Shown here one piece after another: positions 27,421 through 63,700 of a DNA stretch of 64,000 nt (positions are counted from its first letter, which is position 1; each line of letters opens with the position of its first letter). Position numbers and translations under genes: made by a program. Below the pieces are notes generated by a model. It was not told the DNA's origin, ran no database searches, and worked only from the letters and a program-made list of their open reading frames with translations. The DNA is from Trypanosoma brucei (taxonomy: Eukaryota). The DNA is taken from NCBI GenBank assembly GCA_000002445.1, contig AL929603.2, forward strand, positions 32,001-96,000, in the 5' to 3' direction.

Positions 27421-27443
27421 AGGGAGAGAGAGAGAGAGAGAGG
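27421..27443. repeat. (GA)n microsatellite
   Basis: agggagagagagagagagagagg. Absent from the paralogous position in copy 1 (about 12050), which reads agaaagagatagaaagagagg. Confidence 0.8.
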
Positions 27444-28265
27444 AAAATGGACACAATCACGTCACCAGCTGCGTGTCTGCGAAGAACACCATCAAGAGCT
27501 GCTCCATAACTGCAACCATAACTAACATGTATAATATAATTATAACAGCTCGTATATGAAACAGCACATCCAGTAACTGCTTCTAATGTTTGCATATTTC
27601 ACTCCGTCACAATCTCTCTCCCATGACACCTACTGGAAACACAACTCAGAGGAGTTATAGTTGAGGCATGTTTCCAATACGCCCTCTCCACCACGGATGG
27701 CAAAGAAGCAAAAAGTACTATTACATTTTTGTTCCTTTTATCATTGGCCTATAGATCCCTATCTCTACACGGATGTAAAATTTAGATTGTATAAATGAAA
27801 AGAAGATGTGAAAAGTTAGTGTAGTATAATCCAATTCTTTAGTTAGTAACAGCACAAATGAAAACAAAACGTTACAATGTTTTCCTACGTCCGTCGATAA
27901 CATTATTTCTGTCTTTCTCTGTGCCCCTTAAGATTACGATGTGGCTTAACTCCAGTTACGCGTTAGCCGATAAAATACTACTTTTACTATTCCTTAGTCG
28001 TCTTCATTTCCACTTCCCTTCCCTCACCTCCGGCACTCAAGTGAATTATCACGTCCCTTTCCTTGCAGCAGCTGCGGAAGCTCATTACTGGTGGACAAAC
28101 AACACACTTGAAAAGGCGCAACGGGGCACTTCAAGCTGTGATCATAAACCAAACCAGGTACAAAAACGAACCCGCTCCCCCTAATGGTTGGTTCCCTCCT
28201 CTTTAAGCATTTGTCACTCTTAACAGCAACGCCGTGCACTGCTACAAAAAAACAATTACGCGTCT

Positions 28266-30836: not shown

Positions 30837-31399
30837 TTCACTCTCTGAATAATAATCTTAATTGAGTGCGTTGTGTTATTTCCTTTCTTTGTAACATAAA
30901 TTTTAAAAAAGGGATAAAAGATGAGAGAATTTAAAATAGATACATTACTAAACCAAAGCAAATATAAAATCAATGAATATCAGGAATTAATATGGCAGGT
31001 GGAAACTATTTATTGAAATTAGGATTCAATACAAATCTTATCATGTGTTTAGAACTCACAGCAACTTAAGCACAAATAAGGTATGACAGTATGAATAAAC
31101 ATTTCTCTTGGGAGGAAAAACTCAAACAACAATTCCCATTCAGCTACTGCACACAATCATTCCAGAAAAAAAAAATATACTTATATATATATATTTATGA
31201 AAAAGCAAAAAAAAATGTGGCATTGCCATAAAAAACAGCATATAATAGGTTTAGTGATAAATCATGCAAAACGTAGAATACTCGGGTGCATACAGAAAAG
31301 TGCCTTACTTACCTTACAAAATTAAAAATATACCAAAAGTAAAAATAAATATAAAACATTATCTTCACAATTCAAACCAGACACGTATTAAGCAAGAGA

Positions 31400-34300
31400 A
31401 AATAATTCACATAATCTCATACATATGTTACGATGGGCATTGCATGCAGTACAATTTAAAGGAAGTGAAACTCATATAACATTTTCAAAAAAAAGGTATT
31501 GAATGGTTGTTTGCTACCATCAATTACATTTCCAATGCCTAATTACACTTTTATATGCATGAAGGAAGTTACTGATCATAACTTTGACATGCTCGAGAAT
31601 CCATAACACAAAGCGACTGCTGCATGCAATAAAAAATATAAATATAAATAACATCCGAATTCATTTACTGACAGATGAGTGCAATTCATTCATCCAAACT
31701 TCATAGCTGCAGAAATAAACTCGTTGCTTCCAATAGGAAATGATCGCGCATAAATATTGAGTATCTGAAAATGATAGCAACGGGTTTCCATTTTTGAAAT
31801 ATATACATAAACTACATGAGGTATATGAAGCCATATTTGTAAAGTGTCACTACGCATGTTGCAATTTACTATCAGAAGTGTCTTCCTTATTTTATTTCTT
31901 GTGTTACTGTAACTCATGAGTATTATTCATTATTCTTTACAACTGTAAGTCATTTTGCATTTTTACATATTTTCTTATTCCCTCATACTGGAAGTATTCC
32001 ACATATGAGATTCCTCAATATCGTTCACAAAATAAAAATAATTTCATTTCCTTCTGCATTCAGTTTCTCGTGTAGCAGTGTGTACACTAATCATCCATAA
32101 AGTTTTTAATTTGCCAAATACATCATTACGAAACTATTTTCCACAAATAAACAAACAAACATTCCATTGGGACAATATCTTTGAGGAATTTCCTTCACTA
32201 TATTTGCAGTTCAGTAGTGATTAAAAGAAACTTTCTGTATAATTCAACACATGGTGGAATTGCACAGAAATGTGATGGTACTTATAATCAACAAGTTCCC
32301 AATTTTCCTCACATGGTCTCCTTTTTATGCCTTTACATCCTTATATAATTCACAGAGAATTACTGCAATTTCTTTCATATGCTTTCAGGATTCCATATGT
32401 CACAACACAAATAATATATACATTTACACATATATATAATTTGGACATAATATTGCTTAACATATAAATTATCACAAACCTATGACTTTACACTCCTCCT
32501 AAGAATAATAGAATCAAATTATTTCTATTTTGCATCATTACATGAAGCTTTGGAAAAGGAAAAAAAAGAATAAAACAAAAGGTAATGTAAAGAAAATAGT
32601 TTTTTAATACAGAATATAACTTGTTTGTGAGTTTCAGATGCAAACACGAAATGTTCAAACAGGGAAACAGTAAAGGACGTTACTGGTGATGTAAGCACAA
32701 ATTAACCAAAAATAGAAACATAAATAAAATTTAAAACTTATAAAAACACAAATATATATGACACAAATATTTACCACATATTATAATTCGCCACCCTCAC
32801 ACTTGAATTACAAAAAGTACATAACACACATATGTGCCATCTTCTTAACATAATCATTCCAATATTTACTCAGTATGTGTGTGTGTGTAGAAATGATGAA
32901 ATGTAATTGTAACAAATCAGGCACAACACAAACAAAATATATGCATTATATTATTCTCTAAAAAGTAGAAGAATAAAAATCAAGAAATATTACGCAGCTT
33001 TTCTCACAAGTAATTTTGTTTCTGTATACATATAACACGACAGCTAACAACATTAAACTCTCAATTCCATAATATCTGACACCTGAAGTGATAATTAGCA
33101 GCGGATGCCTTTAACAAAAAACAACAGAAATAACAACATCAAAGCATGTTTTGAAAGCTTAAATAAACTTCCTCATGGATAAACCATTTGTACAAAGTTT
33201 GAGTGCCAAGTAGGAGGAACAAAGAAAAATAAAAAAAGAATTAAATGGTAAAAGAATTGCGTGTGATATAACTAAAGGATTTGTTAGGCACTACACTCAT
33301 TAAACTCCAGTTTCATAAAAATACTGTAAGGCATAATATTTACTGCTTTACCGGTTATGTGCCTCCAGCAAGCAATAATAAATACTTCGAGTATTATTCG
33401 ATTTCTGATGCTATGAAGTGTGTAATAAATTAGTCCATGAGTAAAATATTCAAATGTTGGTGTTCACTTCAGATTATAAACTCTGCACTATGAATGTCTC
33501 TCGATGTTTATAATTTGAGAGAGCAAAAGTGACGGCGCTACTATTTATTTCTTCCAGTTCATGAATATATAAATATATTTATACATATATAATCAGATGT
33601 GACATGCAAAAGCGTTTAAACATCAGGCATGAACATCTTTCCATCCATTTAAAGTAAGACGATACAATAAGGTAAGTTTAGGATGAAGTGAAGGTATCAT
33701 AATGTTAATATCTTCCTTCAAGCGGAGGATTCAATTTAAATAGGCGTACTTCACAAACAATAGTAAAATAACTGAGAAAACTTATATCACTTAATCGTTA
33801 TTTCCTTCAATTCTTATTTTGAATCGCTCTGTACCGTCACACCTTCAATAAAGTATATAGTGACGCATTTCATACATCCTCCCTAAGCCATATCTCATAG
33901 TCATAGCTCTCAACAGAAATAATAACAAATAATGAATAGTTTAGTTCTTACCTTCCCTTTTTTACTACCCACAAGAAAGATATACGAAACAATTATCATA
34001 CTGAATAAACAGTAAGGTTTCCTCATCATCCTACGCAAAATATGAATTGAAACGATAATTTACTAACGAAGCGAAAGTGTCTGAAAGCGTCTTTAACTCG
34101 TCTCCTGTGCGGGGCGAAGAGGGTTGTGTTGTGTGGGCTTTCTAAAAATTTCACTCTCTTGCAGACAGCTGTGTAAATAAACGGGGAGTACAGGTGTGTT
34201 TAGAGAAATGTAACCGTACAAAATAATACTCTGCACTCCTAAGTCCAAAGCCATTCATAATGCAGGCTTTCATTAAAAAAATAAGTAGCAGTAGTAGTAG

Positions 34301-37300
34301 TAAGGAGAAAGCTATTGTTTTTCCCTCACTCCTGCTGCCACGTACATCATGCATGATACAACAGTTTCCATTTATTTTATGGTAGTTTTTTTCACATAGC
34401 AAGGGATACTCGGAATTGTTGTATCACTTTCGTTGTCCCAGCCATACTGTCTGCTTTTCATGGTTAAACTAAAACTCCAATGAAATCACATTGTTGTGTC
34501 ATCTTTTGTGAGTCACCAATAATGGTTGTGCCCCACATTTCTTCATGCTGGTAACTATTTTGTTTCCACGACATTTAACCACGTCATGCGCCTCACACTG
34601 ATACATATGTTGCATATCCATGTTTGAGTCCTCAATATTTCAGGGTTCGCCTGCTCCAGCCTCACGACATCGGCGTCTTCTAAAAAGAGCTTTGTAATGG
34701 TGTGTGAAACTCCAGGATTCTCCTTTATTAACTGATGGGGAGTTGATTCAAATTCAATAGTTCCTCATTTTCGCTAACGTATCGGAACCCCAGCCGAATA
34801 TCTTCAGGCAACTTCACTTGAGAGAGAAATGACTTTAGATCAAACAATGCTGCAGACTCGCCATGGAGAGTATTTAAATACTGGGAAAAGTGACCCAATG
34901 GGAGATATGCCTCATAATCATCCCTGCTCTTTTTAGCCTTTGGTCATGCAATAAACCAACGCCTTCTTCCAATTCTGTTTTTCCTCCATCACAAATAATG
35001 GCACACAACCCATCCTGTCGTATGTCTCTTTGAAACTGGGCTAATGATACGCGGCTGCTTCATTATTTGGGCATACTTTTCTACAATGCGCAATTCTGAC
35101 TCCTTCTTTGATACTTTCTCTCTTTGTTTCTTTCTGCATCATCTGTGCTATTCTTAATGCTCCAACCCTCATCAAATCGCTTACTCGCTGCTTGCATCAT
35201 CCTCTGTCAAATCCACGGAAGGGAAATCATTCCCACATTCATTTCCTATTGGAGAGGTGAAGTCTTTTTTTTTCCTCATCCCGTGAGGTCACCTTTGTTT
35301 TCCCTTGTGAGTGTCAAGGAATGCTGTGCAATCGATAATTTGGGAAAGTTATTCACCGTTATAAGTCCCGGCTTCCCTCACACTGGGGCCGCACATTCCT
35401 TCCAATTGTATCTTACATCAAAAACACCCAAAGAATCGACTTGCTGACGGCAGTTGTCACACATCTGAGATACCACACTGTGCTTCGTGGGAGTTCCATT
35501 GTGTAGATGTGCTTTCCCAATTGTATTAATAATATGTTGTCAATGTCGTGCTTCCATTGCAACTACTGCCGCTCCGCGTGTCAGCAGTGCTCTTCTCTTT
35601 ATGGAATGTTCTATCATTACGTATGGTCTTTTCAGTATGGTGTCACATTTTCCCTTTGTGGTAATCGTTATGAACTTCTTCCCCTTTCCTCCAGAGGTTC
35701 CTCCCTATGACTTTTCTCACACTGGCAATGTCCTTTTCCCAGTTGATAATTACGCATCGTATGACTCTGTGGGTATCGCTTTTGAATTTCTTTGGAAGGT
35801 TCCCCCCAAAATCCACTATTGAGGCTTGCCTGCCGTGTGAGTGTGGTATAACATTTTTCTCTTTTTTTTCGGAGCTGTGTAATTTCTTTTTGCCATCGCA
35901 TGGCTGGGTGTAATTCAGGTCACTACTCATATTGCAACTGGATACCACTCTGGACGGAACTTCCTGCAAGATATTATCGAATCACCATTACAACATGTGT
36001 TGTGTTTGTTTGATGGGTTCACCTGTTACCGTATTGTAAAGACGGACCCCAAAAACAACATCCGCGTCGGTGTGTCCAATAGAAATGATGAAAGAGTTCT
36101 CCTGTACTGAAATGGCGTTGCTCTCTGAGAGTCGTAAACTTACAAAAACAAATAAAAGTGCAGTTGCATCCCATGCTGGCATGCGGTAATGATTTTCAGC
36201 CAATGCATAAAAACACCGCATGATGAATTCCCTGTTCCTCACATGTTTTAGTCCTCAGCCACATTCACTTTCCTATTCTATTGGCTCCTGAAACCATTGC
36301 CATGATGTACGGATGGCTTTGTGTGTGGGAACTGCAATAAAATAAAAATAATAATAATAACTCCTTTCACCAATGAGTTTACTATTGGTTGTAAAAGTGC
36401 TCTTGGTGCCACTCCATTATTCTTTTTGAGTCCCCAGCTTTTGAGGGGCTACTGTATTTTTTAAAAAGAGTGATGCACCGTTTTATTCTCCACCCCTTTC
36501 AGGTGAATTTCTCCTGCACAGTTTTTACTCTCCCATTGTAGAATGTTTCTCAAGGTGTTTCCTTTGTGAAGCTTTGGTTATGCTATAATTAAAGACCACT
36601 CAACTCCCTGCTTCAGGGACCTGCTGTTGCATTTATTCCCCTTTAGTTGCTGCAAATTTGTTCACTTGACAAGTTGTAGTGCAATACTTCACTTGACCAT
36701 ATGTGTAACATCGTGTCTCGTTGCTTTATAAAAATTCAAAAAAAAAACACATCAGGTGATATTCTTCTGTTCTTACTTCGTACATTCACATCTCTTCCCG
36801 TCAGTTCGGAAACTCCCACACAAACTCACCACTCCGTGAAGATTTGTAGTTTCCGTTAGTGATGGACGTACTGAAGTGGACATGTTTGGCACTTTAAAAC
36901 TAATTTTTTAAACTTACACCTTCCTTCTTTCATAGAGCTTCAGTGCGAGAGTAAAAGAATAGTTGAGTATCATGAGAAAACATAAGCCTAAAACATTCTC
37001 AACGCAAGCTTTCAATAAAAGCAAACGCATTAAGATGGTTTAGTGAACACATGCAGTATCGTCCATAGCAAAGGTATTATTTACACCCAATAAACAACTC
37101 AAACAAATAACACCAGCATACATATCGCAGACATATAAATTGCACCTACACAAACAAATAAAAACTGCTGTAACTCATCATGTGTAAAATATTATGAGCA
37201 CAAAAACATAAATGTCCTTGATCTTCCATGAATGTATAGCACAATATTATTTTGCATTATCATCGGAAAAAAAATGTATATTGATATATATATTCAGCCA

Positions 37301-37903
37301 AAAGTCAAGAGTGTGCTCTGGCCTTGTAGAACTGTAAATGCGTGCATGTTCTGTTATTATTGTTTCCCATTTTAAAATAAAGATACTTGCAGATGTGGAG
37401 AAACGTCTCCCTTAATGCTTATGATGCACCAAATAATTCTCTCGCAAAGAAAGGAGAGAACAAATGCTCAGTACACGCGTCCCTATTTGTATCTTTCAAT
37501 GAAGGTTCTCTTGAGTGGAGTAAAGAAAAAACAAATAAAAAGCAAGAAGTATATGATGTGAGTGATAATACATAATGAAATGACCCAACAAGAGGGAAAG
37601 GAAGTTACATGCCTTCACTACAGTCATACAAATAAAGCCAGACCCTTCACACTCGTTTTACAATGTTCTGTCGTATCGCTCTGCATAAACAAAAAATTAC
37701 TAATAGGAAATGGAAATGTAAGAATAGAGTAAAAAAGTATCAAGTAGCTTGAGGATTATCGACACTCAGCTACGTGGAATGATACGTATCGCAAATTTGT
37801 GTTTGAAATGCTCACCATCCTAATGAACTTACTCGTATGTTACTTAATCCTAGGAAATACTTCTCTGTGCGCTCAAGTTACCCGACAACTTTCCTTCCAC
37901 ACC
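31400..37903. repeat. Segmental duplication (partial U+E+F segments), copy 1, paralogous to 47330-53853
   Basis: Shared strings gtagcagtagtagtagtaaggagaaagctattg (34285 and 50233). The ORF 35124-35447 is identical to 51071-51394. Confidence 0.8.
34285..34303. repeat. (GTA)n short microsatellite
   Basis: gtagcagtagtagtagtaa. Also present at 50233-50251. Confidence 0.7.
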
Positions 37904-40405
37904 CTATGCATTGTTACCACCTCTATTGTTAACTCCGTTGTTATTTTCACCTCTTGTTTTCAATTCAACGTATAGTGCAATAATGTGTTTATAAAGTGAG
38001 ACCGCGAACTGACGCACTTCCCTTTTCCAAAATCTTTCCTCAACCTCATTATTTTGCCCTTCATCTCTGTCAGTCCTTTCACAGCACTGCGGCTTCGTAA
38101 TTTTTTCGCTGTCAACCCTTTGGACATAAATTATTTCCCATACCATATCATTGGAAAAATTGTCCCAACCTTGGAAGTAACTTCGCAAATACCTCTTCAT
38201 CTTAAATAACCCACCGGTGCTGCAGGGATGTCTACCGGAAACTGTGTACTGCAGTCCCACAAAAGTCTTCGGGCTCTCAACGAAAAAGAACGCATCAACA
38301 ACTGGGAAACTCCTTGATTGCGGCTTGTACAATTTCATATATTGAATTTCAGCTCCAGCTACAATTGGAACATCCTCAGGAACCACAATCGAAGGACCAA
38401 TGAGTCTTGGTTCTTGCAGCACCTGCAGCACACTTTGTGGAATTTGATTCCTAGCAAATGAAAGGCCCTGTAACTCCCTTGCCAACTCAGTTAGTGTATT
38501 CTCATGCGACAATGCTTCAATGCCACTCTTCTCAAACATGTAGGCGGCGATAGCGCGGTTAGACAGCAGAGCAGACATTGCAGCATATTTATCCGTTAGC
38601 CAAGGTATCAGAAAGTCTAAAATAGCTTGTCCCGTGTAAGATGAAAGCGGTCTGCAGCGATACATTTCACACAGGAGCTTCTCCTCCTTCACTCGAACAA
38701 CCCCTACTAACTTGTGTGATACTTCATCTGTTTGCCACATAGCTGCGTTTTGGAAATATTTAGCGTAATCATTCATATCATCATCTTTCATTTTGCCAAT
38801 GGCTTCCTGAACCTTTCCCTCCTGCCTGTTATACGAACTAAGACGACCAATATGACGAAGCAGTGGACCAACGATACGAATGCGACCTTGAATTTCTTGC
38901 CATTCACTTTCAATTTTCTCCTTTGCAACTGGAGGACTCCACTTGTAAGCAGGAGCAATTTTCCCCCATCTCGATATGTGTATGGCTTCCAAATCCTTCA
39001 ATGTATCACAGTTCATGTAAATATCTGAGGCGGTGTTTTGCTTGGACCATTCATGGAATTGCTTGACGTTTGGAGAGCTCAAAGCAATACCGGCACAACC
39101 AGCAGGTGGTTTCGTCGGAGCAGGATGGTCCTTGTCCACATCGAATATAACGTATCCCTTGATATCCTCACCGCTACGTGATCCTCCGATTATTTGCTCA
39201 ACAACTGTAAATGCATTCCCATAATCATTGTAAAACGTAACATATCCTGCTCGACCACCTATGGGTTTGTGAAACACATACGCCTTACCCCTCACAACGT
39301 ATATGATAATCTGAAGCTGACTCGCTTCATAATGCAGTAGTTTGTATAACAGTAGGGATCCCACGGAAAACGATTTACCAATACCAGGTGTACCAATAAG
39401 AACATTAGACGCATCGTCAACAATCACTTCATCCATAAGCCACCGGTTAAGCACATTCTCCACCTTGTACCACACCCTCAGTGCTTCCCTGCGGATATAA
39501 ACATCACTTTTAAAAACATACTCCACTCCCTTCTCATGATTAATATCATAATCATTTGGGTTCTTTTCGAAAGACGTGTATGGCCAACCCATTTGAGATG
39601 TAAGCACAGCAATCTCCAAGTTACCGTGACGGGGAAGTGGTTCGTTCATAGTTTCCGGAGTGTGACTGACATCAACCTCCTCCTTCGTCCACATGTGTGG
39701 CGGTCTTCCATTGAACACTTTCATGCCAAGTGGCTCTTCATCATAACCCGACTCCACATAACCCCACGTCGCATTGTATATAGAATCATATACTCCTTTA
39801 AGTTCGCTACCATCAGCTGTTTGGGCAGCTCGCTTTTCCGCTCTCTTGGCGGCCGTCACCGCTCCATCCAACCTTCCCCTCGCCACGGGACCAACAAATT
39901 CTCTTATTTCCACTGTCCCCTTCTCCTCCCACTGACTGAGGTAGTAAATTTCTTTTTCGTCAAGGTAGTCTACCTTCTCAGACAGATCAATAGCTGTCTT
40001 CACTGTTTTAAACTCATTAGTGCCTTGTATATCCTCAAGAATCTCAGCATCAACAATATATTTTCTGGGATTCTTAACAAAAATGGGCATCCTAACATTT
40101 TCTGCCTCAGCCACCGCAAAAGTCCCGCCAACGAACTTCTGAATAAAGTCGTTCACTGTCATATCCCTCAAACCCGCATAATCATCCAGCAGCACATCCC
40201 TCACCTTACTATCCATTGTCCAGTTGGGCCCCCCTTCAGTTCTCTGCCGTATTTGTGGAGGCTGAGCAGCAGCAGCAGCAGCAGGAGGAGGAGGCGGCGG
40301 TACATTTTCATCCCGTGGCCTCCTCATGGGCCCTTCAAAATTATCTGCCACTTGTTGATTTTCATTATTTCCTTGTGGAGCTGCGGGACTATTTGCTCTT
40401 GACAT
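37904..40405 (-). CDS. Retrotransposon hot spot (RHS) protein, d/f subtype (833 aa), intact
   Basis: Real ATG (gacat on plus strand at 40401-40405 gives MSR). N-terminus MSRANSPAAPQGNNENQQ with PPPPPPAAAAAAQPPQ encoded by a (gca/gga/ggc) triplet run. P-loop VLIGTPGIGKSFSVGSLLLYKLLHY. The 2502-nt ORF has no interruption. Confidence 0.88.
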   Translation of the reverse strand: MSRANSPAAPQGNNENQQVADNFEGPMRRPRDENVPPPPPPAAAAAAQPPQIRQRTEGGPNWTMDSKVRDVLLDDYAGLRDMTVNDFIQKFVGGTFAVAEAENVRMPIFVKNPRKYIVDAEILEDIQGTNEFKTVKTAIDLSEKVDYLDEKEIYYLSQWEEKGTVEIREFVGPVARGRLDGAVTAAKRAEKRAAQTADGSELKGVYDSIYNATWGYVESGYDEEPLGMKVFNGRPPHMWTKEEVDVSHTPETMNEPLPRHGNLEIAVLTSQMGWPYTSFEKNPNDYDINHEKGVEYVFKSDVYIRREALRVWYKVENVLNRWLMDEVIVDDASNVLIGTPGIGKSFSVGSLLLYKLLHYEASQLQIIIYVVRGKAYVFHKPIGGRAGYVTFYNDYGNAFTVVEQIIGGSRSGEDIKGYVIFDVDKDHPAPTKPPAGCAGIALSSPNVKQFHEWSKQNTASDIYMNCDTLKDLEAIHISRWGKIAPAYKWSPPVAKEKIESEWQEIQGRIRIVGPLLRHIGRLSSYNRQEGKVQEAIGKMKDDDMNDYAKYFQNAAMWQTDEVSHKLVGVVRVKEEKLLCEMYRCRPLSSYTGQAILDFLIPWLTDKYAAMSALLSNRAIAAYMFEKSGIEALSHENTLTELARELQGLSFARNQIPQSVLQVLQEPRLIGPSIVVPEDVPIVAGAEIQYMKLYKPQSRSFPVVDAFFFVESPKTFVGLQYTVSGRHPCSTGGLFKMKRYLRSYFQGWDNFSNDMVWEIIYVQRVDSEKITKPQCCERTDRDEGQNNEVEERFWKREVRQFAVSLYKHIIALYVELKTRGENNNGVNNRGGNNA

Positions 40406-43400
40406 AACTCTCTTAATATTATTAACTTAACTTCCTTTCCTTTTCTTTTTTCTCTGAAATTATAAATAACTGAAGTAAAATAATAGATAAGAAAACAATA
40501 GCGGGTGAACAGTGTAACATAATATCAAATGTAATAGAGCGCGTTAATGTTTATTCACTATAGTTTGCAGAATATGATATCATAATGTATTTGGTATTGA
40601 GAGGAACAATTTCAAAATATAGCAGCTGTAAATAAATATTTCCCTTGCTTCATTATCATGTGCTAAATATAATGAACTTCATACATCATTTCTTTAACTA
40701 TGAATAACATGCAGACAAAAAATATTACTGCCTCATATACCTGCATAAACACTTCGTATATATAATCAATATTTAAAGAGAGTCAAATTCTATTGATTAA
40801 AATCAAGTAAAACAATAAACAAAAAATTTATGGATATTAATGAAGCGAAGAAAAAGAGTATCGGCACAACACATAGATATACACACACATGAATACACAC
40901 CACACAACTACACAACTGTTCCACTGGAGTTTCCTCACTTCTGTCAATACGTAACATTCACTTGCATTGAATAAACTCATTGAAATATAAATCACTTATC
41001 CCCTCCCCCGTGTATTCACTTACTTCCAAAGGAGAATATTAAATAATGTCTGTAGGACAGGTAAAAAAAAACTGATAGTCTTTTTGCATCAGATAACCAG
41101 AGAGTATTTCTGTTTACTTTCATAATAAATAAAAACATTCTTTCACCTTCAGTTAAAATAAAATTTAATTACTTGCCTCCTCATTGTTCACAACTATCAA
41201 CAACTAATTCAGCGACACAAATTCATATGTATTTTATGTGCCATCGTTGTTTGATTCATTCACACACCTTTTATGATAGCGATAATACAACATATGGAAA
41301 ATAATTGGAATAAAATTAATACAATTAATTGAGGAAACCGTAAAAGATTATCATAACATATCTTTTATTTTCCCTCCTTTCATTTACACTGATTAATTAT
41401 GTAATGAGACAATTCCTTTTCAGTACGTGTCCACACTTATTGTATCATCATTGTAAGTTTCCTATTGCTCATATACACAAAGTTATTGGAATAACAAAAA
41501 AATAAAACAACACATCTAAATAACTTGAAAAAATATATAACAAATAAAGGTAATAAAGAAAATAAGCGTGAACAGACAGATAATAAAATGAAACACGTCT
41601 CGCACTTTCCTTCTAAATATTCAATAGTTGTATGTTACAAATAAAAACAATTACACATTATAGAAAAGAAGAGATATAATTACATTATACACCTGTATGT
41701 GGATATGTAACAGTGAGTCATAGTAGAAATAAATTGTCTAAACACAATAGTTATGGAAGATAAAATAATTCAAAATATCAATAATATTATTCTATCAACA
41801 TTCCCTTCCTTCTCCATTAAGTTTTCAAATGGTTTCAAATAATAATTCACATAATCTCATACATATGTTATGATGGGTTTTGCATGCAGTACAATTTAAA
41901 GGAAGTGTAGCTCATATAACATTTTCAAAAATAGGTATTGAATGACTGTTTGCTACCATCAATTACATTTCCAATGCCTGATTACACTTTTATATGCATG
42001 AAGGAAGTTACTGATGATAACTTTGACATGCTCGAGAATTCATAACACAAAGCGACTGCTGCATGCAATAAAAAATAAAAATAAAAATAACATCCGAATT
42101 CATTTACTGACAGATGAGTGCAATTCATTCACCCAAACTTCATAGCTGCAAATATAAACTCGCTGCTGCCAATAGGAAATAATCCCGCATAAATATTGAG
42201 TATCTGAAAATGATAGCAACGGGTTTCCATTTTTGAAATATATACATAAACTACATGAGGTATATGAAGCCATATTGGTAAAGTGTCACTACGCATGTTG
42301 CAATTTACTATCAGAAGTGTCTGCCTTATTTTATTTCTTGTGTTAATGTAACTCATGAGTATTATTCATTATTCTTTACAATACAACTGTAAGTCATTTT
42401 GCATTTTTACATATTTTCTTATTCCCTCATACTGGAAGTGTTCCACATATAATATTCCTCAATATCGTTCACAAAATAAAAATAATTTTATTTACTTCTG
42501 CATTCAGTTTCTTGTGCAGCAGTGTGTACACTAATCATCCATAAAGTTTTTAATTTGCCAAATACATCATTACGAAACTATTTTCATACACAAACACAAA
42601 CACATACAAATAAACAACCAAACATTTTTAAATGTTGTTGTGAAACGGAAATTGAATCACGGAAAATTGTGGGGCGCACACGTAATGGGCACCATGAATG
42701 CCTCTTTGGATATTCCTCTATGGATTTTCACCAGCATCATCAACTTACTTTTTGTGTAAAAAAAAACAAAAAAGAAATAAAGGTACAAATGCATTAATAA
42801 ACCCAACTCCTCAGCAGGAAATCAAGAACAGGAAGCCACGAAAAGCGTATGGCACATATGATTTTCACCTCTCAGTTACTTGAGGTGGATCGCATGATTT
42901 ACCCACCTTCTAAGAGCACACCCTCCGAGAGGCCCGATTAAAAGAAAAAAAAACGCTATGACGGTTGAAAAGACGTTTTTCATAAACCTTCACTTTATAC
43001 GTGAGGATGCATGAATAAACAATGATAACGATGAGAATGCTAACGGAAACAATGACGAACCGTGAGGATCCTAGAAAAAAAAATAAAATAAAATCATCAC
43101 GTACCTTCGCAGTAGGGAAACTTAATAAATAACAAAATATAAATATTCCCTACACAGAGGTATAGGGAGTGTTCGTCAACTTCGTAATTCTAATCAAAAA
43201 GTCTTCAAATGTATCGATCATTCGTGTAGTCAATCAAATAAGAAGTAACATGTACTACACGCACAAAAGCACACTTACAAAGCCTACAAACCCACTTGCC
43301 CCCTTTTAGAGAATACCACTCTCTAGTCAGTGATAGGAGAGGTGATATTAAAAGCATTCCCTTTATAATTATTTCTGACTCCTCAATTCGTTGCAACATA

Positions 43401-43423
43401 ACATAACATGCAAAGATGTTGCA
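37904..43423. repeat. Segmental duplication, copy 1 (RHS-d + U + G-segment), near-identical to 53854-59364
   Basis: Direct comparison of long strings. For example, 40406-40560 equals 56356-56510 base for base. 42880-43420 is almost the same as 58820-59360. Confidence 0.85.
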
Positions 43424-53853: not shown

Positions 53854-56355
53854 CTATGCATTGTTACCACCTCTATTGTTAACTCCGTTGTTATTTTCAC
53901 CTCTTGTTTTCAATTCAACGTATAGTGCAATAATGTGTTTATAAAGTGAGACCGCGAACTGACGCACTTCCCTTTTCCAAAATCTTTCCTCAACCTCATT
54001 ATTTTGCCCTTCATCTCTGTCAGTCCTTTCACAGCACTGCGGCTTCGTAATTTTTTCGCTGTCAACCCTTTGGACATAAATTATTTCCCATACCATATCA
54101 TTGGAAAAATTGTCCCAACCTTGGAAGTAACTTCGCAAATACCTCTTCATCTTAAATAACCCACCGGTGCTGCAGGGATGTCTACCGGAAACTGTGTACT
54201 GCAGTCCCACAAAAGTCTTCGGGCTCTCAACGAAAAAGAACGCATCAACAACTGGGAAACTCCTTGATTGCGGCTTGTACAATTTCATATATTGAATTTC
54301 AGCTCCAGCTACAATTGGAACATCCTCGGGAACCACAATCGAAGGACCAATGAGTCTTGGTTCTTGCAGCACCTGCAGCACACTTTGTGGAATTTGATTC
54401 CTAGCAAATGAAAGGCCCTGTAACTCCCTTGCCAACTCAGTTAGTGTATTCTCATGCGACAATGCTTCAATGCCACTCTTCTCAAACATGTAGGCGGCGA
54501 TAGCGCGGTTAGACAGCAGAGCAGACATTGCAGCATATTTATCCGTTAGCCAAGGTATCAGAAAGTCTAAAATAGCTTGTCCCGTGTAAGATGAAAGCGG
54601 TCTGCAGCGATACATTTCACACAGGAGCTTCTCCTCCTTCACTCGAACAACCCCTACTAACTTGTGTGATACTTCATCTGTTTGCCACATAGCTGCGTTT
54701 TGGAAATATTTAGCGTAATCATTCATATCATCATCTTTCATTTTGCCAATGGCTTCCTGAACCTTTCCCTCCTGCCTATTATACGAACTAAGACGACCAA
54801 TATGACGAAGCAGTGGACCAACGATACGAATGCGAGCTTGAATTTCTTGCCATTCACTTTCAATTTTCTCCTTTGCAACTGGAGGACTCCACTTGTAAGC
54901 AGGAGCAATTTTCCCCCATCTCGATATGTGTATGGCTTCCAAATCCTTCAATGTATCACAGTTCATGTAAATATCTGAGGCGGTGTTTTGCTTGGACCAT
55001 TCATGGAATTGCTTGACGTTTGGAGAGCTCAAAGCAATACCGGCACAACCAGCAGGTGGTTTCGTCGGAGCAGGATGGTCCTTGTCCACATCGAATATAA
55101 CGTATCCCTTGATATCCTCACCGCTACGTGATCCTCCGATTATTTGCTCAACAACTGTAAATGCATTCCCATAATCATTGTAAAACGTAACATATCCTGC
55201 TCGACCACCTATGGGTTTGTGAAACACATACGCCTTACCCCTCACAACGTATATGATAATCTGAAGCTGACTCGCTTCATAATGCAGTAGTTTGTATAAC
55301 AGTAGGGATCCCACGGAAAACGATTTACCAATACCAGGTGTACCAATAAGAACATTAGACGCATCGTCAACAATCACTTCATCCATAAGCCACCGGTTAA
55401 GCACATTCTCCACCTTGTACCACACCCTCAGTGCTTCCCTGCGGATATAAACATCACTTTTAAAAACATACTCCACTCCCTTCTCATGATTAATATCATA
55501 ATCATTTGGGTTCTTTTCGAAAGACGTGTATGGCCAACCCATTTGAGATGTAAGCACAGCAATCTCCAAGTTACCGTGACGGGGAAGTGGTTCGTTCATA
55601 GTTTCCGGAGTGTGACTGACATCAACCTCCTCCTTCGTCCACATGTGTGGCGGTCTTCCATTGAACACTTTCATGCCAAGTGGCTCTTCATCATAACCCG
55701 ACTCCACATAACCCCACGTCGCATTGTATATAGAATCATATACTCCTTTAAGTTCGCTACCATCAGCTGTTTGGTGAGCTCGCTTTTCCGCTCTCTTGGC
55801 GGCCGTCACCGCTCCATCCAACCTTCCCCTCGCCACGGGACCAACAAATTCTCTTATTTCCACTGTCCCCTTCTCCTCCCACTGACTGAGGTAGTAAATT
55901 TCTTTTTCGTCAAGGTAGTCTACCTTCTCAGACAGATCAATAGCTGTCTTCACTGTTTTAAACTCATTAGTGCCTTGTATATCCTCAAGAATCTCAGCAT
56001 CAACAATATATTTTCTGGGATTCTTAACAAAAATGGGCATCCTAACATTTTCTGCCTCAGCCACCGCAAAAGTCCCGCCAACGAACTTCTGAATAAAGTC
56101 GTTCACTGTCATATCCCTCAAACCCGCATAATCATCCAGCAGCACATCCCTCACCTTACTATCCATTGTCCAGTTGGGCCCCCCTTCAGTTCTCTGCCGT
56201 ATTTGTGGAGGCTGAGCAGCAGCAGCAGCAGCAGGAGGAGGAGGCGGCGGTACATTTTCATCCCGTGGCCTCCTCATGGGCCCTTCAAAATTATCTGCCA
56301 CTTGTTGATTTTCATTATTTCCTTGTGGAGCTGCGGGACTATTTGCTCTTGACAT
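53854..56355 (-). CDS. Retrotransposon hot spot (RHS) protein, d/f subtype (833 aa), intact. Near-identical paralogue of 37904-40405.
   Basis: Differs from RHS-d at 2 residues (AAQTADG vs AHQTADG; QGRIRIV vs QARIRIV). Flanks are also duplicated. Confidence 0.88.
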   Translation of the reverse strand: MSRANSPAAPQGNNENQQVADNFEGPMRRPRDENVPPPPPPAAAAAAQPPQIRQRTEGGPNWTMDSKVRDVLLDDYAGLRDMTVNDFIQKFVGGTFAVAEAENVRMPIFVKNPRKYIVDAEILEDIQGTNEFKTVKTAIDLSEKVDYLDEKEIYYLSQWEEKGTVEIREFVGPVARGRLDGAVTAAKRAEKRAHQTADGSELKGVYDSIYNATWGYVESGYDEEPLGMKVFNGRPPHMWTKEEVDVSHTPETMNEPLPRHGNLEIAVLTSQMGWPYTSFEKNPNDYDINHEKGVEYVFKSDVYIRREALRVWYKVENVLNRWLMDEVIVDDASNVLIGTPGIGKSFSVGSLLLYKLLHYEASQLQIIIYVVRGKAYVFHKPIGGRAGYVTFYNDYGNAFTVVEQIIGGSRSGEDIKGYVIFDVDKDHPAPTKPPAGCAGIALSSPNVKQFHEWSKQNTASDIYMNCDTLKDLEAIHISRWGKIAPAYKWSPPVAKEKIESEWQEIQARIRIVGPLLRHIGRLSSYNRQEGKVQEAIGKMKDDDMNDYAKYFQNAAMWQTDEVSHKLVGVVRVKEEKLLCEMYRCRPLSSYTGQAILDFLIPWLTDKYAAMSALLSNRAIAAYMFEKSGIEALSHENTLTELARELQGLSFARNQIPQSVLQVLQEPRLIGPSIVVPEDVPIVAGAEIQYMKLYKPQSRSFPVVDAFFFVESPKTFVGLQYTVSGRHPCSTGGLFKMKRYLRSYFQGWDNFSNDMVWEIIYVQRVDSEKITKPQCCERTDRDEGQNNEVEERFWKREVRQFAVSLYKHIIALYVELKTRGENNNGVNNRGGNNA

Positions 56356-59300
56356 AACTCTCTTAATATTATTAACTTAACTTCCTTTCCTTTTCTTTTT
56401 TCTCTGAAATTATAAATAACTGAAGTAAAATAATAGATAAGAAAACAATAGCGGGTGAACAGTGTAACATAATATCAAATGTAATAGAGCGCGTTAATGT
56501 TTATTCACTATAGTTTGCAGAATATGATATCATAATGTATTTGGTATTGAGAGGAACAATTTCAAAATATAGCAGCTGTAAATAAATATTTCCCTTGCTT
56601 CATTATCATGTGCTAAATATAATGAACTTCATACATCATTTCTTTAACTATGAATAACATGCAGACAAAAAATATTACTGCCTCATATACCTGCATAAAC
56701 ACTTCGTATATATAATCAATATTTAAAGAGAGTCAAATTCTATTGATTAAAATCAAGTAAAACAATAAACAAAAAATTTATGGATATTAATGAAGCGAAG
56801 AAAAAGAGTATCGGCACAACACATAGATATACACACACATGAATACACACCACACAACTACACAACTGTTCCACTGGAGTTTCCTCACTTCTGTCAATAC
56901 GTAACATTCACTTGCATTGAATAAACTCATTGAAATATAAATCACTTATCCCCTCCCCCGTGTATTCACTTACTTCCAAAGGAGAATATTAAATAATGTC
57001 TGTAGGACAGGTAAAAAAAAACTGATAGTCTTTTTGCATCAGATAACCAGAGAGTATTTCTGTTTACTTTCATAATAAATAAAAACATTCTTTCACCTTC
57101 AGTTAAAATAAAATTTAATTACTTGCCTCCTCATTGTTCACAACTATCAACAACTAATTCAGCGACACAAATTCATATGTATTTTATGTGCCATCGTTGT
57201 TTGATTCATTCACACACCTTTTATGATAGCGATAATACAACATATGGAAAATAATTGGAATAAAATTAATACAATTAATTGAGGAAACCGTAAAAGATTA
57301 TCATAACATATCTTTTATTTTCCCTCCTTTCATTTACACTGATTAATTATGTAATGAGACAATTCCTTTTCAGTACGTGTCCACACTTATTGTATCATCA
57401 TTGTAAGTTTCCTATTGCTCACATACATAAAGTTATTGGAATAACAAAAAAATAAAACAACACATCTAAATAACTTGAAAAAATATATAACAAATAAAGG
57501 TAATAAAGAAAATAAGCGTGAACAGACAGATAATAAAATGAAACACGTCTCGCACTTTCCTTCTAAATATTCAATAGTTGTATGTTACAAATAAAAACAA
57601 TTACACATTATAGAAAAGAAGAGATATAATTACATTATACACCTGTATGTGGATATGTAACAGTGAGTCATAGTAGAAATAAATTGTCTAAACACAATAG
57701 TTATGGAAGATAACATAATTCAAAATATTAAAAATATTATTCTATCAACATTCCCTTCCTTCTCCATTAAGTTTTCAAATGGTTTCAAATAATAATTCAC
57801 ATAATCTCATACATATGTTATGATGGGTTTTGCATGCAGTACAATTTAAAGGAAGTGTAGCTCATATAACATTTTCAAAAATAGGTATTGAATGACTGTT
57901 TGCTACCATCAATTACATTTCCAATGCCTGATTACACTTTTATATGCATGAAGGAAGTTACTGATGATAACTTTGACATGCTCGAGAATTCATAACACAA
58001 AGCGACTGCTGCATGCAATAAAAAATAAAAATAAAAATAACATCCGAATTCATTTACTGACAGATGAGTGCAATTCATTCACCCAAACTTCATAGCTGCA
58101 AATATAAACTCGCTGCTGCCAATAGGAAATAATCCCGCATAAATATTGAGTATCTGAAAATGATAGCAACGGGTTTCCATTATTTAAATATATGCATAAA
58201 CTACATGAGGTATATGAAGCCATATTGGTAAAGTGTCACTACGCATGTTGCAATTTACTATCAGAAGTGTCTGCCTTATTTTATTTCTTGTGTTAATGTA
58301 ACTCATGAGTATTATTCATTATTCTTTACAATACAACTGTAAGTCATTTTGCATTTTTACATATTTTCTTATTCCCTCATACTGGAAGTGTTCCACATAT
58401 AATATTCCTCAATATCGTTCACAAAATAAAAATAATTTCATTTCCTTCTGTATTCAGTTTCTTGTGCAGCAGTGTGTACTAATCATCCATAAAGTTTTTA
58501 ATTTGCCAAATACATCATTACGAAACTATTTTCCACAAATAAACAAACAAATAAACAACCAAACATTTTTAAATGTTGTTGTGAAACGGAAATTGAATCA
58601 CGGAAAATTGTGGGGCGCACACGTAATGGGCACCATGAATGCCTCTTTGGATATTCCTCTATGGATTTTCACCAGCATCATCAACTTACTTTTTGTGTAA
58701 AAAAAAACAAAAAAGAAATAAAGGTACAAATGCATTAATAAACCCAACTCCTCAGCAGGAAATCAAGAACAGGAAGCCACGAAAAGCGTATGGCATATAT
58801 GATTTTCACCTCTCAGTTACTTGAGGTGGATCGCATGATTTACCCACCTTCTAAGAACACACCCTCCGAGAGGCCCGATTAAAAGAAAAAAAAACGCTAT
58901 GACGGTTGAAAAGACGTTTTTCATAAACCTTCACTTTATACGTGAGGATGCATGAATAAACAATGATAACGATGAGAATGCTAACGGAAACAATGACGAA
59001 CCGTGAGGATCCTAGAAAAAAAAATAAAATAAAATCATCACGTACCTTCACAGTAGGGAAACTTAATAAATAACAAAATATAAATATTCCCTACACAGAG
59101 GTATAGGGAGTGTTCGTCAACTTCGTAATGCTAATCAAAAAGTCTTCAAATGTATCGATCATTCGTGTAGTCAATCAAATAAGAAGTAACATGTACTACA
59201 CGCACAAAAGCACACTTACAAAGCCTACAAACCCACTTGCCCCCTTTTAGAGAATACCACTCTCTAGTCAGTGATAGGAGAGGTGATATTAAAAGTATTC

Positions 59301-59364
59301 CCTTTATAATTATTTCTGACTCCTCAATTCGTTGCAACATAACATAACATGCAAAGATGTTGCA

Positions 59365-60797
59365 TCAGGCAGCGGGGCCACCAGCAATAGCGTTTGGTTC
59401 ATCCTGGGTGATCTCCTTAACAATATTCCCTTCCATCTTCACTTGAAACTGGTTGATTCTATTCCACAACTCTGTAGTATAATCGCCTCTGCCCCCAACT
59501 GGTTCGCACTTCTGCCTCTCCTCGATTGGCTTGCTGTCACTGTACTGTATGTAAATCAGCTCCCATTTCAAGTTTCTTGCGAGCTTATCCCATTCACCAA
59601 ACAATTGTTTCATTGCCTTGATAAACTTATCTACCTTCTCTCGTGTCGTGTGATGCGTTGGTGCCACTGTCGCCTGGAGCAGAACAATTGTTGTTGTAAT
59701 GATCGCTCTTCCTTCTCTATCAACAGCTGGCTCAGTTACAAAGAAAAAGGCGTCCACAACGGGGAAATTTCCCTGTACAGGTCGGTAAAGGCACCCAACC
59801 TTGATGTCTTGGCCTGTCGTTTCGGGGTAAATATGACGAAGTGAAGTTGGAACACGTCCCACGGCATTACCACTTGCCAGAGCGGATACATTTGAATCCA
59901 TTTCTTCTCCAACGCGAGGGAGATACCGCAGGTGCGTCACAATCGTCTGCACAACATTTCTCATCGTGAAGGCAAATATGCCCACATTTTCAAATTCATC
60001 AGCGGCCCGCTCTTCTTTCCCACGAAAAACCTTTCGAAGGTAATTGTCTCGCATACATGCTGTGTTCGCCCACACTCTCAATTTCTGCTCAATATCAATG
60101 GAAACAGCTCTGTTTCTGCATTCTTCTCCATTCTCAGTTACAACCCGGACCAACTTAGCTAACATGTAAGTAGTCCCGTCCTGGCGCCATTGAACTCGAC
60201 TATTCAGCACCTTCATGTAGTGACTATCATCGCCTCTACTGATTTCTGCCAGTGCCTCATTTATTTCTCTAACGCGGCCCTTGTAGCGTTTTTCACCTTC
60301 CAGTACTTGGCGGGCCAGTGGGCCCACCTTCTTAATCCATCCTTCTATTTTCTGCCATTCATTCTCAAGGTTTATGATGTGAGCTTCGGTGATTTTACTT
60401 TCGTCCAACTTCGACAGCCGCCTCCACGCAACCGCAGCCTTCAGTTCCACCTCTTCATAGCAATTGATGCAAAAGCGCTCGCAAGCCCGTGGCCGCTTCC
60501 AGCGTCTGTAGTTATTTGGATCTGGAGATGTCAACACAATTACGGGCCACGTTTCCGGCAATTTTGTCGGTATGGGTTCATCTCTCTCTTTCGCAAAGTC
60601 GTATATAATGTAACCAAGACCTTCTTCATCAGCCAAGTCATTGACAGCATCCACTCCATCTTTTTCTTCTTCATAAAATACAACCTTTCTCGGATGAACA
60701 TTTGTCGCCCTGAAGAAAATATATGCCCTACCCTTCACAAAATAAGCGATAATCCGCAACAGCTCCGAATCGTAATGCAGCAACCTTTGGAGCAGAA
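59365..60797 (-). pseudogene. RHS, e/g subtype. 3' portion only; the gene is split by an ingi insertion at 60797|60798.
   Basis: Collinear with RHS-e from LLQRLLHYDSELL to the C-terminus AIAGGPAA. The in-frame 492-aa ORF runs into ingi sequence. The 5' part (including the P-loop) must lie beyond the ingi, outside the window. Confidence 0.85.
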
Positions 60798-63700
60798 TTT
60801 TTTTTTTGAATTTTCTTCGTGCCTTCGTGAGAGTTTCTCCCAACTGGCGCGGCCATCAGCCATCACCGTAGAGCCCTGAGATGCTATCGGTCTGGCGACT
60901 GTGGCAGAGTCTCCCTTTTTTATTCATCCTAACACACCCTCTATAATTTTTGTTGTAGCTCCGCATATGAACGGAATACAGTAGATGGGGCGAGAAGCCC
61001 CCCTCACCCCGGACTCTCCCAAAGATGTCAATTAGCAATCCTTTTGTTTTGATTTTTGTTATTCGTTTATTATTCTCTCCCCCTCTTTCTGTTTCTGTTG
61101 CTTGTTGACTGCATACCTCCTCTGTCTCTGAGGGTGTCTGGACTATTCCTGCGTCCGGTGCTTTTCCTGCTAGCTCCACATTCGGCAATAAGGGGGGAAG
61201 TTGCAGAAGGGAGAGTGGGTTGTATGACTGTTACCTTAGGTGAGGACTTCACCTGCGGCCGGCTCCGTTCAACCGCAATGAGAAACTGCGCCAGCCTTTT
61301 GGAGAAACATACATCCTGCACACACTCACCTTCTACCGCAAATCTGACACGTAACTCCTTCAAACCGGGACAGCTCATCAAGTGCAGCGACGTTTCTTCG
61401 CAGTCGCCGCGTTGGCTGGTAACAGCGCGCTCTACCTTCATACCGTGCATCTTCTTTTGATGTAGGGTGAGGCCAGTTTTGCTAGCACACTGCCTTCCGC
61501 ATGTCGGGCACACCAACATGGATGTGTTTGTATGCGGGGAATCAGTGGCACACAATTTTGTGCTTTTGCTGCATTTAAGCTCGACTCCCTCACCTTTGTG
61601 GAAAGCCTTACAGTGTCGGATGAGGGAGTCCCTGCAACTGAGCACTTTTTGGCACACACCACACTGCACCTCGCCCTTCCCCGGGACGTCAACGTTTCCC
61701 TCACGGGCACGCTTACGAGGGAATTGCACCAACACCACGGTACCGTCCTCCGTCACTATGCTTTTATGTTTGAATTTCTTGTGTAGTGTCAGGGAAGAAC
61801 GTGTACCGAAGCTCGCCTCGCACAGGTCACATTGAAACGGCAGCTTCCGTGTATCCTGAGAGGCTGGCGCTGCTGGGGCTTTACCATCTCCTTGCACTGA
61901 GTCCTCGTTCTCTCGCCCCCTTTTCACGCGGCAACTGCCGCTGCCTATGCCATGTATTGTTCTAAGGTGGTGTAGTAGTCTGCCTGGCACTGCGAATTTG
62001 GAGGCACAGATGGTACAATGAAGCACCTGCGGTCTCATCGGGACTCGTGTGCTCGATGGTAGGGGAACGATCGCCACCACTGGAGGGGGCTCCGGGGGGA
62101 TATCCACTGCAGGTGTTGCATCGCCGTATTTGATCCTCCGGAGGGCATCAGCTCGCACAAAGCCATGTTTGTTTACCATATGCGTTACAGCACTCGAGCG
62201 GCATTGGTATGTGGCATCACATTCCGTACATTTGGTCGGTTCGGAGGTTCTTTGAAGAGTGCGTGTCGCAACAGTTGGGGCTGTTTGTATTGTTGGCCCT
62301 ATCTCTGCATGTTGCGGGTTGCACCATCGGCACTGTGGAGGCACACTCGGGTTAATCTTTCGCAACATCCATCCATAGTGTCTTGAAGACCCAACCCGAA
62401 AGCGTGCCAGTGCCGTTTCTTCTTCCCTCGTCAGTTCTTCCTTATGTTTTGTTGGAAAGTGGTTGCCCGTGATACCAAACCTATGAGTGTTCTCATGGAC
62501 TTCTTCCGACCTAAGCACTCGCTTCGCATAAGCAATGATGTCGGGGATCCATGTGTCTCGCAACTGTGGTAAATCTGCGGCCTTTTTGGCCATGTCATCG
62601 CAAACCTCATTCCGTTTCACGCCACAATGGCCAAACACAAATTGCAGTCGGATACGTATCTTCCTTCTCTGAACTTGAAGCAGAAGCCTCCATAGTCGTC
62701 TTAGAATTGGGTCCGTTACGGCTAGGGGGCCTGTCTGCAGTGCTGTTAACATTGACAGCGAGTCAGAGAAGATGGACAACCTGCTCGGTGTGGTTCTGTA
62801 TGCCGGAAGCCATTTCAGCAGCCGTTGCAGTCCTATCTCTAATGCTACGCATTCCGCTCTGTAACTGCATGAAAGTTCCCCTGCTCCTGTCTTAGGTGCA
62901 CAAATCAGCGTGTTGTTTCTATAGAGCAGGGCAGCTGCTCCGGACTTCTCACCGAGGGACACGGATCCATCAGTCCACAATTCGTAGTGCTCTCGCCGCG
63001 GTGGCTCCTTCCCCCTCCGTGCAAAATGTCGTTCAATCCACTTTTCGGAAGCCTCCCTTTTGACATCGTCAGGGTCATCAGCGCACACAGGCTTTATCTG
63101 CGTGTGAAATATCGGTCGGCAGCTGTGGCGGAGCGTCGATGTCTCTAGTGGGTGCTCGCGTGGCTCAATGCGGAGGTGGGGGTAGGACCGCATGATACGG
63201 GAATGTAGGGCTCTGACTGGGTGTTTGCTGTGGTATACTTCTTCAGCACTGCGCCGCAAACATCCGCCTCGTGACTCACACATCAGCATGAATTTCATGC
63301 TGCGCACAAGAGTGGCCGTCTTGAGTGGCAGGAGGTTTGCTTCCAGCAGAGAGTCCTCTTTGCGCGTCCCATGCGGTATGCCGGCTATGATGCGACTGGC
63401 TTTGTGTTGTGCTGATGCAAGGAGGTCGCGACTTCGTTCCGAAGCGTCCCAGTACCATACCTCAATGCCATACATGGTGTGTGCCTGTACGAGTGCTAGA
63501 TAAAAAGTTCTCAGTACTTGTCGTCTTGGCCCCCATGTAGAAGCTGAGATGGCTGCTATCTGCAGTAGTCGGAAGTCCATCTTGCGTCTCGTTTCGGCCG
63601 CATGTGTTGCCATCCCCTGCAGACACTGGAATGTTACTCCTAGAAGCTTCGGTGTCCTGTCAGCTCCTATTCTTTCACCGTCCAGTTGTAATGTAAGGGG

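Follow-up and report, generated by a model that had tools for sequence, protein, structure and literature searches.

We analysed a stretch of 64,000 nucleotides of Trypanosoma brucei DNA (assembly GCA_000002445.1, contig AL929603.2, positions 32,001 to 96,000 of the forward strand), which is called the window here. The window carries a 15.9-kb tandem duplication of a segment with two genes of the RHS family, and the two copies of the segment are mosaics of closely similar and clearly diverged stretches. We propose, with a probability of about 0.8, that the duplication arose by unequal recombination between RHS 5' repeats, and that it was followed by gene conversion in long and short tracts and by insertion of an ingi retrotransposon.

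Self-BLAST shows that positions 31401-44855 are repeated, head to tail and in direct orientation, at 47331-60797; the period is 15,930 bp and the identity 97.4% over 13,490 alignment columns. Outside an array of 50-bp repeats, this is the single dominant match. Alignment of copy 1 with copy 2 by MAFFT gave 292 substitutions in 13,432 aligned bases and 58 gap columns. In the global alignment the identity falls to background just left of 31401/47331 and just right of 44855/60797, and 13.45 of the 15.93 kb of the unit are visible twice within the window. Read on the minus strand, the unit consists of an RHS2-like gene, a spacer (G, 0.8 kb), the upstream region of the RHS1 gene (Us, 2.2 kb), the RHS1 gene, a second spacer (X, 3.5 kb) and the distal part of a conserved RHS upstream repeat (Ud, 2.9 kb). 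Each unit has one intact RHS1 gene and one defective RHS2-like gene. The units and their parts are as follows, where Up is the proximal upstream region.

31401-47330, minus strand: duplication unit 1, complete (15,930 bp); in plus-strand order Ud, X, RHS1 gene d, Us, G, RHS2-like gene e, Up
47331-60797, minus strand: duplication unit 2, 13,467 bp visible; Ud, X, RHS1 gene f, Us, G and the 3' part of RHS2-like gene g
31401-34272, minus strand: Ud; further copies at 47331-50221 (unit 2) and 21640-24581 (upstream of pseudogene b)
34273-37811, no strand assigned: X; copy 2 at 50222-53760, 95.2% identical; within the window present only in the two units
37904-40405, minus strand: gene d, RHS1, 833 residues, intact; exact match to CAD53024/XP_846389
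43795-45915 (open reading frame, ORF) within the gene 43424-45915, minus strand: gene e, RHS2-like, frameshifted
53854-56355, minus strand: gene f, RHS1, 833 residues, intact; exact match to CAD53027/XP_846392
59365-60843 (ORF; RHS part 59365-60797), minus strand: gene g, RHS2-like, without its 5' part

A first-pass annotation, made from the sequence letters, had described a tandem duplication of about 16 kb with two RHS genes per unit, and the measured period and the Pfam matches of the minus-strand genes bear this out. It had also let copy 2 run to about 63300. The homology stops at 60797, and 60798-64000 is a non-long-terminal-repeat (non-LTR) retrotransposon. Copy 2 ends there because an ingi element was inserted at the RHS hot spot, and not by sequence divergence.

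The boundaries of the units fall in a repeat that recurs along the array. Ud, Up, Us and roughly the first 800 bp of the coding sequence make up a repeat of about 90-94% identity that precedes genes b, d, e and f, and most RHS genes in the array have an RHS 5' repeat of this kind (the N-terminal coding region and 2-5 kb upstream) in front of them. In self-BLAST, 19465-22407 matches 39671-42611, 45080-48096 and 55621-58555. The Ud of unit 1 is 94.5% identical to 21640-24581, and its first 760 bp recur at 41841-42602 and 57791-58551. The longer segment 19540-24581 matches 45253-50221 at 91.6%; thus the sequence across the junction between the copies (47330/47331) is contiguous at another locus. 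Ud stands at the left boundary (31401) and at the middle one (47331), and independently at 21640; the third boundary lies off the window. Because the homology between the copies starts exactly at the start of Ud and the junction is an ordinary contiguous repeat, we propose that two conserved RHS 5' repeats of the Ud type underwent unequal homologous recombination. Ud would then be the candidate substrate of the unequal crossover. As for X, searches of 34000-37903 for ORFs, for Pfam domains in six frames, for Rfam families and for tRNAs gave no signal, and X showed no similarity to RHS, to ingi or to other parts of the window beyond its own second copy.

The junction also bears on the possibility that the duplication was made in assembly, about which the first-pass annotation had warned. 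Two divergent haplotypes of a single-copy segment could have been joined in tandem, or a repeat could have been mis-assembled. In favour of such an error, T. brucei is diploid and its subtelomeres are reportedly very polymorphic. However, a software-made exact duplicate is excluded by the 292 substitutions, the 58 gap columns, the frameshift and the retrotransposon insertion, and the junction lies inside a repeat that is contiguous at 19540-24581. Both RHS1 copies are, moreover, separate entries in the reference annotation. A mis-join of haplotypes is unlikely, as the chimeric join would have to fall exactly in register with the RHS upstream repeat. The warning thus finds little support, and we regard an assembly artefact as very improbable.

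The two copies are not equally similar along their length. The substitutions are unevenly spread (chi-square 274 over 26 bins, 25 degrees of freedom, p = 9e-44), and the longest identical run, 1645 bp, was reached in none of 2000 shuffles. The left part of the unit, 31401-37811 (6.4 kb), is 3.7% diverged between the copies. To its right follows a block of about 0.4% divergence (0.2-0.6%), a short patch in the RHS2-like gene and a microsatellite-like stretch (42489-42605) excepted. The switch at 37811 is abrupt, with 12 substitutions in the 169 bp of 37643-37811 and none over the next 566 bp. The block and the divergence of each part between the copies are listed below.

37812-44855 (copy 2: 53762-60797), minus strand: high-identity block of about 7 kb; RHS1, Us, G and the 3' part of RHS2
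Ud: 2.9% divergence
X: 4.3% divergence
RHS1 coding sequence: 0.20% divergence
Us (non-coding): 0.38% divergence
G (non-coding): 0.61% divergence
3' part of RHS2: 0.2-1.3% divergence
core of the RHS2 patch, 44218-44373: 12.8% divergence

The identity profile along the unit, a check that had been suggested in the first-pass annotation, is thus strongly non-uniform. The flanks had been called near-identical, which holds for the right block only, and the main heterogeneity had been placed between the d/f pair and the e/g pair. The dominant contrast is instead between the older-looking left part of 6.4 kb and the young-looking right block of 7 kb. The microsatellite-like stretch, which is rich in CA and AT and lies at the Us/G boundary (42489-42605 against 58439-58546), has 8 substitutions and 9 gap columns in about 117 bp and is the sole indel-rich spot in the high-identity block.

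A single duplication without later exchange might give uneven identity if the mutation rate varied locally or if purifying selection protected some parts, and the most similar stretch does include the intact RHS1 coding sequence. Selection on the RHS1 protein was rejected as the cause of the high-identity block, as Us and G, which are non-coding, are just as similar: they are 0.4-0.6% diverged, against 2.9-4.3% in the likewise non-coding Ud and X. Synonymous divergence in RHS1 is also very low, with two synonymous codons among the four that differ. The divergence switches within less than 170 bp, and the RHS2 patch, 12.8% diverged with a nonsynonymous to synonymous ratio (pN/pS) of about 1.4 on very few sites, lies beside 382 identical bases. 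The similarity of Us and G, both AT-rich and non-coding, is on a par with that of the coding sequence; neither selection nor the local mutation rate can therefore explain the pattern, and a history without exchange is hardly credible.

Signs of exchange were also found in the left part. When Ud of unit 1, Ud of unit 2 and the copy upstream of b were compared three ways, 42, 43 and 117 unique sites were counted, respectively. Since 117 sites are unique to the b copy against 42 and 43, the Ud copies of units 1 and 2 are each other's closest relatives. The copy-specific sites within Ud are clustered, with 15 consecutive sites specific to copy 2 (p = 0.0004). The clustering of the differences and the mosaic agreement with third sequences both point to gene conversion, or concerted evolution, between paralogues. 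We presume that a tract of at least 7 kb with RHS1, its upstream region and RHS2 was homogenised between the copies after the duplication. Alternatively, another RHS1-RHS2 locus may have been the source from which both copies were overwritten. The first-pass annotation had already suggested that patchy gene conversion followed the duplication; the non-uniform identity and the mosaic RHS2 patch agree with that suggestion, which had overlooked the ingi element, the frameshift in gene e and the contrast between left and right.

The RHS1 genes d and f differ in 2 of 833 residues (A194H and G507A), the same count as in the first-pass annotation, and in two synonymous codons. Both show the C-terminal region specific to the RHS1 subfamily, according to their exact RHS1-named entries and their match to RHS1 of chromosome 2. 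Compared with the chromosome 2 RHS1 (AAQ15519), gene d is identical at residues 1-60 and, apart from one site, from about residue 200 to the end (about 640 residues), and 48 differences are packed into residues 61-195. In this N-terminal block the chromosome 2 version resembles the N terminus of e, whereas the version of d resembles b. N-terminal modules have thus been shuffled among RHS1, RHS2-like and pseudogene copies. RHS1 homogenisation and this shuffling act between chromosomes as well as between the two units, and homogenisation extends over the family as a whole.

Gene e has lost one base in a run of C (C4 to C3 at about 43883), which cuts the ORF 43795-45915 to 706 amino acids. Downstream of the deletion the frame is open to the C terminus of the family at 43424, and the product would have 830 amino acids if corrected. 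Gene g (59365-60797) has an intact reading frame from the hot spot to the stop codon, and its 5' part lies beyond the ingi element that is inserted in it. The best matches of e are in a 90% protein cluster that contains 'RHS2a' (AAL14353), and the subfamily call for e and g rests on these matches. In the C-terminal 200 residues of e and g, about 5% of the positions differ from the RHS2a cluster, and the proteins have the same end (...NAIAGGPAA). Compared with chromosome 2 RHS2, e and g are 78% identical overall, and many residues common to e and g are absent from the chromosome 2 copies. The RHS2 genes of chromosome 2 that are named in PMC6393297 are Tb927.2.280, Tb927.2.380 and Tb927.2.400. 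By these protein comparisons, e and g have the C-terminal region specific to the RHS2 subfamily; both are defective, e by the frameshift and g by the ingi that splits it.

Within the high-identity block, e and g differ sharply in one place.

44019-44373 (copy 2: 59961-60315), minus strand: mosaic patch of about 350 bp in the RHS2-like genes

The core of this patch, 44218-44373, has 20 substitutions in 156 bp (12.8%), and the 382 bases that come next do not differ at all; on either side of the patch, e and g are the same. The core encodes the peptides PRHVLEGDKPYCDHV at 44329-44373 in e and ARQVLEGEKRYKGRV at 60271-60315 in g. These two peptides had been quoted earlier as a sign that the e/g pair is noticeably more diverged than d/f. 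They are present and the difference is real, but it is confined to this tight patch with identical flanks and is not the dominant heterogeneity of the unit. Within the patch, g has the residue of chromosome 2 RHS2 at 18 of 18 amino-acid differences, and the g-type patch was found in every retrieved RHS2 copy. It thus seems that one of the two genes, either e or g, took part in an exchange of about 350 bp with another RHS2 paralogue. Positive selection in the patch was considered and set aside, the pN/pS value being uninformative on so few sites.

These relationships with chromosome 2 allow a compound origin to be weighed. In that case, an older duplication would have made the Ud-X flanks, and the RHS1-Us-G-RHS2 cassette would have been copied into one position or both from elsewhere, for example from the chromosome 2 pair, so that the young block was not homogenised between the tandem copies. 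The match of d and f to chromosome 2 RHS1, with a single difference in about 640 C-terminal residues, fits this idea, and so does the sharp left edge of the block at 37811. The chromosome 2 RHS1 and RHS2 accessions are consecutive (AAQ15519/AAQ15520 and AAL14352/AAL14353), which by its numbering suggests that the two genes are adjacent. On the other hand, e and g are only 78% identical to chromosome 2 RHS2 and have many private residues in common, and d and f have a common N-terminal block that is 48 positions off the chromosome 2 RHS1. Because of such states, common to the two cassettes and absent from chromosome 2, the cassettes d-e and f-g are most closely related to one another and were not brought in separately from chromosome 2. 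A compound origin would itself be ectopic gene conversion and overlaps with the explanation we prefer. We consider it unlikely.

A further idea goes beyond the locus. The high-identity block of about 7 kb might be one case of a directed, genome-wide homogenisation of the RHS1 cassette, with the linked RHS2, between chromosomes by long-tract copying similar to that of VSG switching, and RHS arrays beside expression sites might be actively exchanged cassettes. If true, the RHS1 C-terminal regions would be kept identical on chromosomes 1 and 2 while N-terminal modules and short internal patches were shuffled concurrently, and the arrays would not be passively decaying duplicates. We hold this idea as doubtful.

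The element that ends copy 2 is located by comparison with the empty site in gene e.

60798-64000, minus strand: ingi-type non-LTR retrotransposon; 3' 3.2 kb in the window, same orientation as g
44854-44895, minus strand: P-loop GTPGIGKS (44872-44895) and empty hot-spot site in gene e

The element has a tail of ten A residues (A10) at 60798-60807, and the stop codon of its ORF is at 61070-61072; the ORF is open upstream to the edge of the window. It matches Pfam RVT_1, RNase_H and zf-C2H2, the FADD box of the reverse transcriptase is in the open frame, and a reverse-transcriptase cluster of T. b. equiperdum with 60 members matches the ORF at 96% identity. On the minus strand, the insertion reads '...GGCACGAAGAAAATTC' and then A10, directly joined to 'TTCTGCTCCAAAGG...'. 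In gene e, the P-loop GTPGIGKS and five more codons stand before TTCTGCTCCAAAGG..., and the ingi tail in g accordingly meets RHS sequence at the base equivalent to 44855, five codons and one base past GTPGIGKS. PMC7563717 places the RHS hot spot five codons after the ATP/GTP-binding motif (see also PMC6393297). An RHS pseudogene of T. b. gambiense turns to non-RHS sequence at the same codon. These features indicate that the element is probably of the ingi type and lies at the canonical hot spot of the family. No match to the RIME/ingi 5' end was found elsewhere in the window, in a weak test. The conserved 5' end of the element, its endonuclease domain and the target-site duplication would lie beyond base 64000. 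What remains of unit 2, with the 5' half of g, would lie beyond the element, off the window. We predict a total length of about 5.2 kb for the ingi, and then a short target repeat (about TTCTGCTCCA...) and the 5' half of RHS2.

Several points weigh against unequal recombination followed by conversion and ingi insertion. Neither the right end of copy 2 nor the third Ud that is predicted falls within the window, which shows two of the three boundaries expected from an unequal crossover. With only two copies of X in the window, the older-looking left part cannot be polarised. The copy number is read from this single assembly. The frameshift in e sits in a homopolymer and could be a sequencing error. 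The exchange of the RHS2 patch could have run in either direction, and a donor for the e-type patch (PRHVLEGDKPYCDHV) was not found among the retrieved proteins.

The duplication is part of an array of seven RHS genes, which starts at 12.9 kb; all seven are on the minus strand and read towards the 50-bp repeats. The features of the window to the left of the units are as follows.

1-8153, no strand assigned: array of 50-bp repeats, 163.1 copies, 95% matches (Tandem Repeats Finder)
12937-14994, minus strand: gene a, RHS4; CAD53013/CAD53018 are the RHS4-named entries that match a and c
18655-20205, minus strand: gene b, RHS, truncated
28266-30836, minus strand: gene c, RHS4

Genes a, c, d and f are exact protein matches to entries of chromosome 1 of T. 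brucei brucei TREU927. Pfam RHSP (PF07999) and RHS_N (PF20445) were detected in a-f with E-values from 1e-30 to 1e-140, and in g, with its 5' part displaced, the RHSP match starts at profile position 18 only. For the seven genes as a set, RHSP, RHS_N and DUF7578 were reported. In self-BLAST, the 50-bp array matches itself at offsets that are multiples of 50. Arrays of 50-bp repeats lie upstream of the promoters of bloodstream VSG expression sites in T. brucei (PMC2533676, Fig. 1 legend). The present array reaches the left edge of the window, and the window contains no promoter or ESAG; the expression site itself would be to the left. The first-pass annotation had placed the RHS array next to an expression site, and the 50-bp repeats at 1-8153 agree with this, with the site itself outside the window. 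Because the accession numbers start low and rise with the window coordinate, and because the window opens inside the repeat array, we infer that the window is the left end of the TREU927 chromosome 1 sequence. The GC skew is negative in almost all 2-kb bins from 10 to 62 kb, in agreement with the minus-strand RHS genes and ingi. The region from 8 to 62 kb appears to be one directional gene cluster that points at the 50-bp repeats.

Proteins of the bacterial artificial chromosome (BAC) H25N7 were considered as an independent check of the assembly and rejected, as they come from another locus. The identity is 96% between H25N7.12 and RHS4 c and 90% between the RHS4 entry CAD21767 and RHS4 a, with the differences between the BAC-derived proteins and the chromosome 1 genes clustered in the N-terminal part. 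The BAC-derived RHS4 proteins, which are from the original RHS study, belong to a paralogous or allelic array and not to this sequence.

Other mosaic modules are found left of the duplication. A 158-residue ORF with RNA polymerase Rpb2 domain 6 is located at 10601-11077 on the minus strand, and its top match among solved structures is the human Pol III subunit RPC2 (residues 705-835, E = 5e-10). A second, frameshifted copy is at 25981-26452 on the minus strand. Both are inside a 2.7-kb repeat (9900-12595 and 25278-27979, 95.6% identical) directly downstream of the RHS4 genes, and an RHS4 gene with an RPC2-fragment pseudogene looks like a duplicated module. The RHS4 proteins a and c are only 53% identical, against 95.6% for the 3' flanks of the two genes and 88% for the proximal 5' flanks. 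The RHS4 modules 9900-15439 and 25278-31285 are thus another strongly mosaic duplication in the array. Gene b is a pseudogene (18401-20205, minus strand), of which the ORF stops at 516 amino acids, midway through the P-loop domain; beyond this point, weak similarity goes on in another frame. No retroelement is present in b, and the 3 kb downstream of it (15440-18400) are unique AT-rich sequence.

The duplication is real but ordinary, a feature of an already known kind in an annotated reference genome. The two-regime divergence, the mosaic RHS2 patch and the identity of RHS1 between chromosomes are new only as specifics. The copies can be told apart by the 292 substitutions, the frameshift and the ingi insertion. 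The 99.6%-identical 7-kb blocks and the near identity to chromosome 2 RHS1 confound short-read mapping, copy-number calls and the design of RNA interference or knock-out experiments on RHS1. The locus also shows, cleanly and on a small scale, how gene conversion in long tracts and in short ones can act together in a T. brucei subtelomere.

RHS arrays, their duplications, recombining 5' regions and ingi at the hot spot are said to be the defining observations of the family, made in 2002. The RHS gene clusters of T. brucei subtelomeres, reportedly described by Bringaud et al. 2002 (Eukaryot Cell 1:137), are summarised in PMC6393297 and PMC7563717, and the latter reports recombination of RHS 5' regions. 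The present array, likewise from T. brucei and of the RHS family, is clustered upstream of expression-site 50-bp repeats like those clusters. It has the same conserved P-loop N-terminal region and subfamily-specific C termini (RHS1, RHS2 and RHS4 here), the same abundance of pseudogenes, an ingi five codons past the P-loop and 5' regions that recombine between variants. There is no difference in kind; what is added here is the two-regime divergence, the 350-bp RHS2 patch and the near identity to chromosome 2 RHS1.

In tandem arrays of T. brucei, unequal crossing-over and partial gene conversion give chimaeric copies, and non-coding sequence is often as homogenised as coding sequence (Jackson 2007, PMC1855330); tandem and segmental duplications that evolve in concert in this species are also described by Jackson et al. 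2010 (PMC2854126). Homogenisation and divergence within one array are likewise observed here. Those surveys treat mostly arrays of the core chromosomes, and RHS in passing, whereas the present case is a 15.9-kb two-gene unit in a subtelomere with evidence of exchange with another chromosome. The retrotransposon agrees with the ingi/RIME elements of T. brucei in its ORF with reverse transcriptase, RNase H and C2H2 zinc finger, in its 3' poly(A) tail, and in its orientation and insertion codon, which are those found in other RHS pseudogenes. It differs from them in being known here from its 3' 3.2 kb alone, the 5' part of about 2 kb being located beyond base 64000.

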